Positions 17,267 through 26,374 of a stretch of DNA of 32,000 nucleotides are shown piece after piece. The notes under the pieces are model-generated. The model was not told the origin of the DNA. It searched no databases and worked only from the letters and a program-made list of their open reading frames with translations. The position numbers were made by a program, and so were the translations under genes. The stretch is from Candidatus Thorarchaeota archaeon (GTDB taxonomy: Archaea > Asgardarchaeota > Thorarchaeia > Thorarchaeales > Thorarchaeaceae): positions 636,890 to 668,889 of the forward strand of contig SHMX01000001.1 in assembly GCA_008080745.1 (NCBI GenBank), in the 5' to 3' direction. Position 1 is the stretch's first letter. Every line of letters starts with the position of its first letter.

Positions 17267-18115
17267 TTATTTCATGATATCATCTATTGTGACTTTTTCC
17301 TCAGAGGATAACGATCTCATTTTGAATACGATGATTACCATTATTGCAAACCCGATATTGACAAGAAGGGTGTACACTGCAGGAATGGTAAATCCAGCAT
17401 CATATATCAGGAAGCCAACAGTATTAGTTATTGCATGATATAGTGTCACGGTAATCAGGTTCCCGTTAGTTGAATTGTATATCCAAGTGTATAGGATAGT
17501 TACAATAATTGTATGTAGGGAGAAAATGAGAAAATTGCCGTAGATCTCAATTTGCGCACTTGAGGGAATCACGAAATATTGCCAATGCCAAAGGGACCAA
17601 ACAATTCCCAGAGCCAGACTCGCAACCAAGGCATTTTGCGTCTTCTGTAAAGCAGGGAGTGCAAAGCCTCTCCAACCTATTTCTTCCCAGATATTCATCA
17701 AAAAATTGCTCAAAAGAATAGGGATGAATACTGCAAAGTTTGCATTTAGAAATTCAAAAGTTGAACCCATTAGAACCATCATACCGATGGCAGTATAAAA
17801 GGTCACAAAGGGAAGAATGATTGCCACCATAATCATTGGTCTATTAGATATCGACCGAGTGAGTCCAGAGAAGACATTTTTTGCGCCATCACTACCAAAT
17901 GCCAAAGCAGCCGTTATGACCGCGGCTATCGTAGGTGAACCGCCCCCAAGCAGGACAAACGGTGTAACCAATGTGGTGGGGAATAATCCATATTCTGATA
18001 GAACCAGTGGTAGGTATCCAATAAAACCGATTATCAGAGCCAGCAAAGAAAATACAAAGAAGGCATACTTTAGAATGAAACTATGATTAGATGATGTCGA
18101 TTCTGTATCATTCAT
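17267..18115 (-). CDS. CPBP (Abi/Rce1-like) intramembrane glutamic endopeptidase
   Basis: EEIGWRG, WSLWH, HAITN motifs; multi-TM. Confidence 0.92.
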   Translation of the reverse strand: MNDTESTSSNHSFILKYAFFVFSLLALIIGFIGYLPLVLSEYGLFPTTLVTPFVLLGGGSPTIAAVITAALAFGSDGAKNVFSGLTRSISNRPMIMVAIILPFVTFYTAIGMMVLMGSTFEFLNANFAVFIPILLSNFLMNIWEEIGWRGFALPALQKTQNALVASLALGIVWSLWHWQYFVIPSSAQIEIYGNFLIFSLHTIIVTILYTWIYNSTNGNLITVTLYHAITNTVGFLIYDAGFTIPAVYTLLVNIGFAIMVIIVFKMRSLSSEEKVTIDDIMK

Positions 18116-22816: not shown

Positions 22817-22911
22817 GTTTCTCAGAGAATCGGGTGCATGATTGTCAAGATATAAGGTTTTACAGAGTAAGGAAGGAGAAGAATGAAGTTCACAAGTAGT
22901 TAGAATTCAGA

Positions 22912-22955
22912 TAAAAAGAGAAACGAGTGCTCAGGTTGCTTCCAACGCGAGCACT
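22912..22955 (-). terminator. Intrinsic-type hairpin plus U-tract closing the micro-ORF cassette
   Basis: Minus strand: AGTGCTC-GC-GTTG-GAAG-CAAC-CT-GAGCACT followed by CGTTTCTCTTTTT. Confidence 0.65.
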
Positions 22956-23035
22956 TCACTGAGAGTGAGTTCACCGCTCTTGCTAGAGTCTTGGTGTTTT
23001 GGAGTCGATTGCTTATCTTGAACGCTTGAGTTCAT
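22931..23035 (-). CDS. Micro-ORF 3, 34 aa (MNSSVQDKQSTPKHQDSSKSGELTLSEVLALEAT)
   Basis: ATG 5 nt after the ORF2 stop with AGGAG upstream; its stop lies inside the terminator stem. Confidence 0.4.
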   Translation of the reverse strand: MNSSVQDKQSTPKHQDSSKSGELTLSEVLALEAT

Positions 23036-23040
23036 TGAGA

Positions 23041-23124
23041 TTATCTCCTGAAGTAAGCGTGGGTGATAGCCTTGGTTGAGGGGGACTTGGTGTCCTTGAT
23101 GATCTTGGTTTTAGAAACTGCCAT
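23041..23124 (-). CDS. Micro-ORF 2, 27-aa basic peptide (MAVSKTKIIKDTKSPSTKAITHAYFRR)
   Basis: SD GGAGGT embedded in the end of ORF1, ATG 6 nt after its stop; paralogous C-terminus; C-ending codon bias. Confidence 0.65.
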   Translation of the reverse strand: MAVSKTKIIKDTKSPSTKAITHAYFRR

Positions 23125-23130
23125 TGAGTT

Positions 23131-23235
23131 CTACCTCCGGTAGGTGTAAGCGTAGGACAGAGCCTTGGTGCTCTGGGTCTTACGGGTGTTGTTCTTTTTC
23201 TCGGATTCAGTTCGGGAGTTCTTTGCAAACGCCAT
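23131..23235 (-). CDS. Micro-ORF 1, 34-aa basic peptide (MAFAKNSRTESEKKNNTRKTQSTKALSYAYTYRR)
   Basis: Manual translation; GTGA-type SD spacing like other genes in the window; paralogous to ORF2. Confidence 0.65.
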   Translation of the reverse strand: MAFAKNSRTESEKKNNTRKTQSTKALSYAYTYRR

Positions 23236-23266
23236 GATTGTTCACAACATATACTCCTCCAAGTTA

Positions 23267-23274
23267 GTATATAA
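23267..23274. promoter_or_regulatory. TATA-box-like element in the divergent region (direction ambiguous)
   Basis: GTATATAA / TTATATAC about 30 nt upstream of micro-ORF 1; it could instead serve the + strand gene at 23391. Confidence 0.3.
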
Positions 23275-23390
23275 TGGAAAGCCACGATTATAGGACACAC
23301 AATGTAGTCACAATTTGTGACCATGAAAACCAAGTGCCATAACCTAAGAAGTAATCAATCAAATAATGAAGAGATAAACAGTGAGTTGGA

Positions 23391-23837
23391 TTGAGTCTAG
23401 AGAATGAAATTAAAACCTGGTTCTGGGTGCCCAAATTCTGGGTACCATTGTACTTGTTAGGATTGGTATTAGCTATTCTTTCACCAAGTTTAGTTATGTT
23501 GTCATGGGCTATTCCCATCATTATAGTTGTAGCAGCTGCCCCAATCATATACAAAAATCTTGTAGGCGGAGGTTGTAGTCTCAGATTTCAAATTTGTGCC
23601 TTAGTTAAAGGAATGGTAGCAGGTATATTGTTTGGAGGTCTATCACTATTAGCCGATATGATACTTCAAAATACTATATCATTGACGACTATGTCAATTG
23701 TCCTTGGTTTAGAAGGGGTATATTTGACTTGGTTTTTTGCAGGAGTAATTGGAGGTATCGGTGCTAGAATCATTGAGGTTCAACAGTACTCAACTGTTGG
23801 TACAATTCGTCCCATCGTAGAAACCAAAGATCACTAG
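23391..23837 (+). CDS. Hypothetical membrane protein (~4 TM)
   Basis: 148-aa hydrophobic ORF with TTG start. Confidence 0.7.
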   Translation: MSLENEIKTWFWVPKFWVPLYLLGLVLAILSPSLVMLSWAIPIIIVVAAAPIIYKNLVGGGCSLRFQICALVKGMVAGILFGGLSLLADMILQNTISLTTMSIVLGLEGVYLTWFFAGVIGGIGARIIEVQQYSTVGTIRPIVETKDH

Positions 23838-25261: not shown

Positions 25262-26374
25262 ATGGCTGATCAGAGCAAAGGAAAAATGCGATTCTTTGTA
25301 CCCGCTGTTGCAGTTGTTGCGGGGGCATCTATACTATCCATAGTACAGGTTATATTAATCGTAATTGACGGAGTAGTACCCTTTCTTTCAGAAGAAGGGA
25401 TAATACGATCACTTCAAGTTACATTAGTGGGACAATTAGTGGGAGCTATCATCGTTGCACTAATCTTCATCCCCATGTTTGGTCTAAGAGATGTGAAAAC
25501 AGAATCTCTTAGTTCTGAGGGCTTTAAACGTACCTTTCTCACAGTACCCATAATACTCACATTTGCATTTTTAGTAAATCTGTTAATACTGCTTCTCTTT
25601 TCACTGCTTGGTTGGACCTCTGAGAGTGGATATACGGGAGTCCTATATCTTGAATTAGAACATTTAGCGAATCCATGGAATATCGTGGTGTTTTTCGCAG
25701 TGGGTTGTTTGGGTGCACCCCTCTATGAAGAATTACTCTATAGGAGAACAGCAATACCCTTGATGGAAAAAAGAGGAATGAACGAGGGTGAAGCGATTCT
25801 AGGGTCGACCACACTATTTGCTCTGGCTCATGTACCTCTAGATCTAATGAATGGGAATGTACCAGGTGCAATCCAACACTTCATTGGTGTCTTTGTTATT
25901 GGTTTATTCATTGGTATCGTCTATGTAATGACGAGAAATGTGGTTTATCCCATAATCATTCATGCCATTGTGAATGGACTATCATTTATCGCATACATAG
26001 GAACTGTAGATGCTTCTTTGATTTCTTTCGCTTTATTTGTAGGGGTACTATACTTGATTATGCTCCCCATCGGAGCATATATGGCTTACAAAAAGCTTGG
26101 TGGATGGATTGCAAAAGTAACCGAGAATCTTGATAATGTCAAGTCTCTATCTTTTGTTGTCATGGTGATCATCTATCTGATAGGCATCTCGATATTCCCA
26201 TTTCTGCAAGCTATAGCAGCCCTCATTCTTGGAGATGCTGTTCTGACACCCGAAGGATTTACCATCTACCTTTCAATTCTTCTTATCAGTTACCTATTGA
26301 TTGGTGTAATTCTTTTTATTGTGGCTCTAGTCAAATCTGGAAACGAATCCCCCTATCAAGAAGAGGGAAATTGA
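25262..26374 (+). CDS. CPBP intramembrane glutamic endopeptidase
   Basis: EELLYR, FALAH, HAIVN. Confidence 0.9.
   Translation: MADQSKGKMRFFVPAVAVVAGASILSIVQVILIVIDGVVPFLSEEGIIRSLQVTLVGQLVGAIIVALIFIPMFGLRDVKTESLSSEGFKRTFLTVPIILTFAFLVNLLILLLFSLLGWTSESGYTGVLYLELEHLANPWNIVVFFAVGCLGAPLYEELLYRRTAIPLMEKRGMNEGEAILGSTTLFALAHVPLDLMNGNVPGAIQHFIGVFVIGLFIGIVYVMTRNVVYPIIIHAIVNGLSFIAYIGTVDASLISFALFVGVLYLIMLPIGAYMAYKKLGGWIAKVTENLDNVKSLSFVVMVIIYLIGISIFPFLQAIAALILGDAVLTPEGFTIYLSILLISYLLIGVILFIVALVKSGNESPYQEEGN

Follow-up and report, generated by a model that had tools for sequence, protein, structure and literature searches.

A candidate Thorarchaeota-specific micro-operon of three small peptide genes, dispersed in near-identical copies

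Background

What does a stretch of about 410 bp encode when it recurs, nearly unchanged, at several places of an archaeal genome? The stretch in question lies on the minus strand of what we call the window, that is, the whole 32,000 nucleotides analysed here, taken from contig SHMX01000001.1 (positions 636,890 to 668,889) of assembly GCA_008080745.1, a Candidatus Thorarchaeota archaeon. A preliminary description, made from the letters alone, had proposed that it is a dedicated, self-terminated unit for a family of small peptides rich in Lys, Thr and Ser. The question is of some general interest: genes for proteins shorter than 40 amino acids (aa) are routinely missed, and almost nothing is known of them in the Asgard archaea, which are not yet routinely grown. 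From the comparisons reported below, we concluded that positions 22913-23321 (minus strand) are almost certainly one copy of a Thorarchaeota-specific, self-contained coding micro-operon. What its products do is a more difficult question, to which we can only give a graded answer. Throughout, G000 denotes the assembly holding the window, C1-C12 its Thorarchaeota contigs, and G001 a congener of G000.

A repeated cassette with three frames under selection

A nucleotide search of the genome's own assembly delimited the whole repeated cassette (presumed operator, promoter, three open reading frames (ORFs) and hairpin) at 22913-23321, minus strand. Five near-identical copies (88-98% identity), one of them in the window, are dispersed over four contigs of G000; they have the same sharp ends, and their flanks are unrelated. 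G001 holds four copies, with 81-85% identity to those of G000. The preliminary description had thus found the cassette, but had set its upstream edge at 23275, about 45 bp short of the edge at 23321.

The three minus-strand ORFs are present as first noted: ORF1 at 23235-23131 (34 aa, net charge about +7, MA[LF][AT]xN...EKKN...QST[KD]AL.YAY...R), ORF2 at 23124-23041 (27 aa, net charge about +6, MA[LV][AS]K...ST[KE]A[IL]..xYFRR) and ORF3 at 23035-22931 (34 aa, acidic, C-terminus L[TS]xxEVLALEAT). All three are supported by the ratio of nonsynonymous to synonymous substitution rates (dN/dS) and by the codon positions of the variable sites, ORF1 also by a hidden Markov model (HMM) and ORF2 by hhalign. 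The selection analysis used the nine copies of G000 and G001, dN/dS being computed between the copies of both species. In the proposed frames it is 0.42 for ORF1, 0.12 for ORF2 and 0.27 for ORF3, as against 0.8-3.1 in the two shifted frames (1.8-2.8 for ORF1). The variable sites fall on codon positions 1/2/3 as 7/9/18 in ORF1, 2/4/16 in ORF2 and 7/7/14 in ORF3, which gives 16/20/48 over the three ORFs (chi-square p = 2e-5). Every indel inside an ORF keeps the frame (6 nt in ORF1, 3 nt in ORF3), and the indels of 1 nt are confined to the short leader and to the stop and spacer of ORF1; by the one in the spacer, the frame of ORF1 relative to that of ORF2 differs among copies. In one copy a Ser codon is changed from TCC to AGT, and the stops TAG, TAA and TGA interchange among copies. 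The spacers of 5-6 nt are nearly saturated with changes (9 of 11 sites), and the 86-bp promoter has 18 variable sites, well under the rate of third codon positions.

We also considered the frames that overlap these ORFs. The overlapping PRL[CS]PTLT frame was rejected, since its dN/dS is above 1 and a 1-nt indel in the ORF1-ORF2 spacer breaks it. An overlapping ORF of 106 aa with a TTG start (23013-23333, minus strand), which runs through the promoter, ORF1 and ORF2, is likewise spurious, with dN/dS above 1 and a frame broken by a 1-nt indel in other copies. One can notice comparable false ORFs, extended by gene callers, in the copies on C8 and C12. The three proposed ORFs, on the other hand, are all kept across most genera of the family.

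ORF1 and ORF2 have in common the motif STKA[LI]..AY..RR. Its Ser is written AGC in one ORF and TCA in the other, the Arg codons are CGG AGG against AGG AGA, the stop is TAG against TAA, and ORF1 has one extra codon, all as first described. When their profiles are compared with hhalign, the probability is 97% (E 9e-11). Judged by sequence, the two are paralogues. ORF3 proved unrelated to both, so that the proposed tandem of paralogous genes stands for the first two ORFs and does not extend to the third.

Distribution in the Thorarchaeota

By blastn, the cassette is found in 61 of 86 genomes and in 13 of the 16 genera of the Thorarchaeota family to which the window belongs. The HMM of ORF1 matches 37 of the 43 family genomes sampled; across 26 other Asgard families (158 genomes) it has no match. 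Genera seemingly devoid of the cassette have diverged versions of it: three ORFs with a hairpin of other sequence in G020, one ORF and a hairpin in G005, ORF1 and ORF2 in G014. We searched for the pattern of the end of ORF3 in one genome per species, over 185,579 species, and obtained 22 contigs, all from metagenome-assembled genomes (MAGs) titled Candidatus Thorarchaeota, 'uncultured archaeon' or Promethearchaeota. The viral contigs of IMG/VR gave zero matches. The promoter pattern is found on nine contigs of the JGI metagenomes, on seven of which ORF1-type and ORF2-type genes come after it at a fixed distance. On these sequence searches, the cassette is limited to one Thorarchaeota family.

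Signs of bulk production

The preliminary description had remarked on a strong codon bias, and this is borne out. Among the Tyr, Asn, His, Asp, Phe, Lys and Ile codons of the cassette, 26 of 31 (0.84) end in C or G, when the genome mean is 0.34; not one of the 1,813 long ORFs on C1-C12 reaches 0.84. The real genes with the highest index are those of acetyl-CoA synthetase (0.65), actin (0.63), the thermosome (0.62) and EF-1alpha (0.58). The genes acs and lokiactin have been reported among the highly expressed Thorarchaeota transcripts (bioRxiv preprint 10.1101/374165), which indicates that the index tracks expression. We must note that contigs C14, C15, C17, C18 and C19 of G000 have 62-65% G+C, against 39-43% elsewhere, and distort the codon statistics unless they are excluded. 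They carry bacterial-looking genes and are probably contaminants of the MAG.

Four copies of G001 are syntenic with four copies of G000, with flanks that are 75-80% identical; yet the elements group by genome, with 88-98% identity within genomes and 81-85% between them. Hence, we concluded that the dispersed copies are old and are kept alike by gene conversion. A scan of the six-frame translation with the HMM gave a sixth copy in G000, much diverged (G000:C2:49545-49864, minus strand), in which all three ORFs, both junctions and the hairpin spanning the stop are retained and the promoter differs. Its ORF1 starts with TTG and ends in YHAYVYRR, its ORF2 ends in STKAIGYSYQYR, its ORF3 ends in DEVLRLECT, and its promoter has another inverted repeat, AAACCATT...AATGGTTT. 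This copy has evidently escaped gene conversion. The gene dosage is therefore of six three-ORF copies in G000, and the relatives have 1-9 ORF1-type matches per genome.

Codon bias and dosage together make high expression of the family quite likely. With the gene conversion added, they point to a production in bulk of peptides acting in trans. As to the unit itself, the selection in frames, the conservation, the codon bias and the hairpin described below all support the dedicated, self-terminated unit that had been proposed.

Signals for transcription and translation

The 5' edge of the cassette is formed, in all genera examined, by a perfect 15-bp palindrome, GTCACAAATTGTGAC (23307-23321, minus strand), which we presume to be an operator. 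It is followed downstream, as far as 23281, by additional half-sites resembling GTGAC or GTGGC. Then come a conserved GTGGCTTTCC and the TATA box ATTATATAC (23267-23275), which is unchanged in 24 of 25 elements; its end lies a constant 30-31 nt from the ATG of ORF1 (24 of 25 elements). An initiator-like motif, TTGTGAA (23241-23247), is conserved across genera. By analogy with the usual archaeal spacing from TATA box to start, transcription would begin at about 23242-23243 and leave a leader of some 7-9 nt devoid of a Shine-Dalgarno (SD) sequence. A GGAGG at 23260-23256 and an ATG-TTG-TGA mini-ORF (the two together span 23260-23242) were discarded, as neither is conserved in relatives.

The two junctions between ORFs are of the kind first described, with an SD inside the end of one ORF, 8-9 nt ahead of the next ATG. 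At the first, GGAGGT (23133-23138) covers the last codons and the stop of ORF1, 8 nt ahead of the ATG of ORF2, and is complementary to the CCUCC of the 16S rRNA, whose 3' end in G000 reads ...GGATCACCTCCT; GAGGTGA or GGAGGTA is kept there in all genera, and the spacer of 5-6 nt varies freely. At the second, AGGAG (23045-23049) lies in the last codons of ORF2, 9 nt ahead of the ATG of ORF3, and AGGAG[AG]TA is conserved across genera. An SD which is complementary to the 16S rRNA, lies within the end of the upstream ORF and is conserved across genera is what a translationally coupled operon has. The same type of junction is used in an ordinary operon of the window (GGAGGTAG type, 14681-14674), as had been pointed out.

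The upstream TATA-like element (23275-23267) and the downstream hairpin with its T-tract had both been announced, and both are there. An inverted-repeat search gave a 13-bp hairpin with a GAAG loop (22926-22955, minus strand), which contains the stop of ORF3. Over 20 sequences, 89.6% of the cells are paired and two pairs show a compensatory change, with a covariation score that is matched by 20 of 500 shuffles. G020 and the diverged copy of G000 have hairpins of other sequence in this position. A scan with sigma-70 and terminator consensus did not flag the hairpin (one mismatch), but this is uninformative for archaea. After the hairpin comes a T-rich tract (22911-22923), the presumed end of the transcript: the sequence identity between copies stops at the hairpin, yet all five copies of G000 are T-rich beyond it. 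The T-tract probably terminates the transcript.

The peptides

The N-terminus of the peptides had been called variable. For ORF1 this did not hold: MA[LF][AT]xN is conserved at its N-terminus. Its consensus is MAL[AT]xNxR..EKKN..QST[KD]AL.YAY...R, with an invariant core S-T-x-A-[LI]-x-[YF]-A-[YF] behind a semi-conserved N-part. That of ORF2 is MALAK...ST[KE]A[IL]..xYFRR, in which the Tyr/His aromatic position varies freely. ORF3, which was found by an ATG scan in 20 of 25 elements and in one more with a TTG start, varies in its front part, and its tail, L[TS]xxEVLALEAT, is almost invariant. In all three ORFs the conservation is strongest in the last 12 residues or so, by the stop codon.

Are these conserved ends a property of the peptides or of the signals written over them? 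The preliminary description had cautioned that the final Arg-Arg may be fixed by the embedded SD. In part it may, as the final AGG of ORF1 lies within the conserved GAGGTGA; but the one-ORF cassette of G005 still ends in YRR, and ORF2 of G014, where ORF3 was not found, ends in FRK, so that a basic C-terminal end seems to be wanted in the peptide too. Similarly, the codons of the ORF3 tail vary mainly at third positions, and in G020 a related tail, IAEVLAWEVT, goes with another hairpin sequence. This means that the tail is more than the shadow of the hairpin.

All three peptides are hydrophilic, have neither signal peptide nor membrane segment, and contain no Cys and no recognisable cleavage motif. 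AlphaFold2, run with 42 sequences, models ORF1 with a C-terminal helix at residues 23-32 (predicted local distance difference test, pLDDT, about 80) and the remainder disordered. By our own reading of the helical wheel, this predicted helix would be amphipathic, Leu, Ala and three Tyr being on one face and Thr, Lys and Ser on the opposite one. The prediction of a complex of ORF1, ORF2 and ORF3 scored 0.03, which gives no answer, and it was not used as evidence.

Known families were of little help. Pfam, NCBIfam and PADLOC gave zero matches for the three peptides even at E = 10, Rfam gave none in the cassette and only matches at chance level outside it, and the protein Atlas gave no usable match. 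A profile search of 1.84 billion representative proteins returned 26 matches, mostly of 32-38 residues, and the eight of them that were looked up are described as 'hypothetical protein' only. The peptides did not match any known nucleic-acid-binding motif or family either. A likeness to thymosin/WH2 and to histone tails was dismissed, as the order of the motifs is wrong and the match is of 4-5 residues only.

Sites elsewhere with the same palindrome

In the 3.16-Mb genome, this palindrome followed by a TATA box is found at only seven sites: the five cassettes, C4:63943 and C3:523720. The site at C4:63943 precedes two other small ORFs and a transporter of the major facilitator superfamily (MFS), an operon that spans G000:C4:63943-65712. 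The one at C3:523720 stands between a gene for a winged-helix protein of the HTH_45 family (107 aa, G000:C3:523367-523687) and a gene for a bactofilin-domain protein (414 aa). The HTH_45 protein has 63-99% identity across the family, and in 11 of 14 loci of relatives the palindrome (with at most two mismatches) lies just past its stop. At G000:C3:523367-525044 one reads the HTH_45 gene, the palindrome with a similar promoter, and the bactofilin-type repeat protein, and this pairing recurs across the family. We think it likely that the palindrome marks a regulon; the HTH_45/bactofilin-type pair probably belongs to it, and the HTH_45 protein is, by adjacency, the obvious candidate for its regulator.

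Orthologues of the MFS transporter are present in 13 of 15 genomes of the family and in none of 10 others (E <1e-60); by sequence, the transporter has no relative in the PDB, and NCBIfam gives it no name. In G004, G006, G015 and G002, one or two ORF1-type genes, together with the palindrome promoter where the contig extends far enough, lie directly upstream of the MFS gene and in the same orientation. Diverged versions of this arrangement are found in G011, G008, G000 and one metagenome contig. Besides the shared promoter, this MFS link is the only recurrent gene association that we found.

Two observations may be added about these transporters. A paralogue of the MFS gene lies at G000:C1:631801-633192, 3.7 kb before position 1 of the window, with a degenerate palindrome and the same TTGTGGCT...ATTATATAC promoter directly ahead of its start, and no peptide ORF. 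In six genomes, a conserved element of about 48 nt separates the ORF1-type gene from the MFS start (in G000:C4, at about 64200-64260): GTGGTCAC, loop TTTSNCCCAYCARCAGCATAT, GTGACCAG. This may be an RNA hairpin of the riboswitch kind, or else a second operator made of the same GTGAC half-sites.

Genomic neighbourhood

The neighbours of the five copies of G000 are unrelated housekeeping genes: DinB-family, PolX, luciferase-like oxidoreductase, EF-1alpha/GNAT/DsbD, FtsX and Tsr3/DsrE/Cbf5. In four of the five cases the downstream gene runs towards the copy. Of 19 cassettes in other genomes, 12 have a co-directional ORF next to them and 7 a convergent one, and the encoded proteins are mutually unrelated. 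As the downstream ORFs are unrelated, the cassette is a stand-alone unit and not the leader of a fixed gene. The FtsX-type gene by the copy on C8 is convergent and non-recurrent, and no integrase or transposase was seen near the copies. In the window, two membrane proteins of the Rce1-like CAAX-protease family (17267-18115 and 25262-26374), less than 9 kb apart, flank the cassette, and a membrane protein of 148 aa (23391-23837) is divergent from its promoter.

Discussion

How could the cassette work? The palindromic operator, the GTGAC half-sites, the TATA box and the initiator motif would drive an almost leaderless mRNA of about 330 nt, from the 5' end of which ORF1 would be translated. ORF2 and ORF3 would be translated by way of the SDs inside the last codons of the preceding ORF, a coupling that would keep the products in roughly fixed proportions, and the message would end at the hairpin holding the ORF3 stop, and then the T-tract. 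The products would be two cationic paralogues, both disordered in their Lys/Thr/Ser-rich front and ending in a short amphipathic helix rich in Tyr, and an unrelated acidic micro-protein with the EVLALEAT tail. A regulator bound to the palindrome, probably the HTH_45 winged-helix protein, would act as the switch. The peptides, or a product derived from them, would be exported by the MFS transporter or act at it, as a signal, an antimicrobial or a precursor, and ORF3 would be their acidic partner inside the cell. We prefer an export by, or action at, the MFS transporter because the same promoter and ORF1-type genes directly precede this lineage-specific transporter in several genera.

The link to MFS export is nevertheless tentative, and the statement as a whole, that is, the anatomy, the bulk products acting in trans and the MFS link as preferred function, has in our judgement slightly less than an even chance of being right. 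Several points weigh against it. Transcript, translation and peptide are all deduced from sequence alone, and the regulator is assigned by adjacency only. The peptides carry no export signal or membrane segment and are far more hydrophilic than typical membrane-active peptides; MFS transporters normally carry small molecules, not peptides of 3-4 kDa. The MFS-linked variants have neither ORF2 nor ORF3, the window's own copy is not associated with an MFS gene, and the co-occurrence of peptide and MFS genes was counted over related, non-independent genomes. Lastly, no immunity gene, maturase or ABC exporter is found within about 6 kb of the five copies. A more specific version, in which an Asgard-specific system exports cationic peptides in bulk, unmodified or lightly processed and kept harmless by ORF3, through the palindrome-bearing MFS transporter and under one winged-helix switch, seems to us rather unlikely.

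Could the cassette be instead a structured RNA, or the end of a mobile element resembling a miniature inverted-repeat transposable element (MITE), with ORFs occurring by chance? It is a dispersed repeat with sharp boundaries, the fold of its predicted transcript is somewhat more favourable than those of shuffled sequences (z = -2.5), and the nucleotides of its 3' hairpin are highly conserved. However, the three-periodicity and the low dN/dS are seen only in the proposed frames, the indels respect these frames, and Rfam has no match. A mobile element would moreover have to do without terminal inverted repeats, without a transposase or integrase near and without a match in IMG/VR, and the four copies at syntenic sites in two species show that it has not moved recently. 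A non-coding origin is thus largely refuted and has next to no chance. If the ORFs are genes, the MFS-linked variants suggest another reading, in which ORF1-type peptides are nascent leader or arrest chains which regulate the MFS gene in cis in response to a metabolite, the three-ORF cassettes being derived from them with a role at the RNA level or as decoys. Bacteria are well known to place leader peptides ahead of transporter operons (SpeFL, TnaC, MdtU), a length of 33-36 aa suits the ribosomal exit tunnel, and the focus of conservation on the last 12 residues or so of all three ORFs would be expected, as would the conserved inverted-repeat element that precedes the MFS start in an arrangement found in several genera. 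Yet a hairpin and T-tract close the cassette of the window and its four siblings, a convergent gene stands downstream of four of these five, and the downstream genes of other genomes are unrelated, so that only the MFS-linked variants are placed as an attenuator would be. A sensor working purely in cis would have no use for several copies, gene conversion and extreme codon bias, and N-terminal residues are conserved too. We regard this reading as very improbable.

There remain two readings in which the peptides act in trans. They could be abundant micro-proteins that stay inside the cell and, in some particular condition, coat or bind nucleic acids, ribosomes or another large partner, much as small acid-soluble spore proteins or protamine-like peptides do, with ORF3 as counter-ion or chaperone and the MFS gene merely in the same regulon. 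A charge of +6 to +7, a disordered front rich in Lys, Arg, Thr and Ser before a Tyr-rich helix, the missing export signal and the signs of bulk production (copies, gene conversion, codon bias) would all fit, a coupled acidic partner suits a neutralising role, and the regulated promoter is common to a cytoskeleton-like gene with a bactofilin domain. But no known nucleic-acid-binding motif or family is matched, a restriction to one family would be odd for a core role in chromatin or ribosomes, and the repeated operon fusion of ORF1-type genes with the MFS gene is left unexplained; we consider such a role doubtful. Or they could be precursors consumed one per product, by analogy with PqqA or with dispersed ribosomally synthesised and post-translationally modified peptides (RiPPs), whose maturases would be encoded elsewhere and whose small product the MFS transporter would export. 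Dispersed multicopy genes with signs of high expression suit a stoichiometric use, the invariant short core behind a semi-conserved N-part would suit a precursor, the MFS gene adjoins variant copies, and the genome has one orphan radical-SAM-SPASM enzyme with a RiPP recognition element (RRE). That enzyme, however, lacks orthologues in complete genomes that carry the cassette (G013, for instance, which is 97% complete), its homologues (about 35% identity) occur in families without the cassette, and no modifying enzyme lies within about 6 kb of the five copies. The copies have been homogenised and not diversified, Cys is missing from the peptides, and ORF2 varies freely at its Tyr/His position. 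An origin as precursors is therefore improbable. Two further candidates were rejected: a type I toxin-antitoxin module, since all three peptides are hydrophilic and a sigma-70-type scan, which says little about archaea, showed no conserved antisense promoter, and a leaderless multi-peptide bacteriocin, since no ABC exporter or immunity gene is associated with the five copies and the peptides are hydrophilic.

It is useful to set the cassette beside systems that are already known. The leaderless bacteriocins of Firmicutes (aureocin A70, garvicin KS, enterocin L50) are likewise encoded by small tandem operons for three or four unmodified, cationic, partly paralogous peptides of about 30-34 aa, without leader. 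They are, however, hydrophobic or amphipathic, rich in Trp and Gly, and encoded beside an ABC exporter and immunity genes, whereas the cassette is archaeal and multicopy with gene conversion, its peptides are hydrophilic, the third one is acidic, and there is no sequence similarity. The alpha/beta-type small acid-soluble spore proteins of Bacillus (ssp genes) are comparable in being small, abundant proteins from dispersed, monocistronic genes that are promoted and terminated separately and switched on together by one regulator; they differ in being folded DNA binders of 60-75 aa, expressed under a sigma factor, where the cassette has peptides of 27-36 aa in a coupled operon of three genes, and there is no homology. 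The precursors PqqA and ProcA (prochlorosin) are also encoded by tiny genes, some of them multicopy and distant from those of the processing enzymes, which are transcribed from a strong promoter and followed by a hairpin; but no maturase could be linked to the cassette, which has no Cys or Glu-x3-Tyr core, and its copies are identical instead of diversified. SpeFL-speF-potE, TnaC-tnaAB and MdtU-mdtJI resemble the MFS-linked members, with about 24-34 codons, a conserved C-terminal part and a place directly upstream of a transporter; unlike them, the cassette of the window has no downstream gene to control, is multicopy and codon-optimised, and has two further coupled ORFs. Finally, sP26 and sP36 of Methanosarcina mazei are also archaeal, shorter than 65 aa and missed by annotation, and one of them acts on a transporter. 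These are single-copy regulators with defined partners, whereas the cassette has the signatures of bulk production and three coupled peptides.

The cassette is thus of a familiar kind in so far as unannotated genes for small proteins and multicopy peptide genes are known. In the literature on small proteins and small ORFs in Thorarchaeota and other Asgard archaea we found nothing on this family, and the combination of three coupled micro-ORFs, dispersed and homogenised copies, and an operator common to a transporter family, in one Asgard lineage, is undescribed in the literature that we found. With selection in three separate frames, the comparative support is unusually strong for a family of micro-proteins. 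The copies also show cleanly how protein-coding repeats scattered over an archaeal genome can evolve in concert. Three peptides of 27-34 residues, one DNA site of 15 bp and one regulator of 107 residues are targets that can be synthesised, which opens the way to experiments on regulation and on small proteins. As far as the codon bias and the gene copies can be trusted, this family probably ranks with the most strongly expressed products of the Thorarchaeota.

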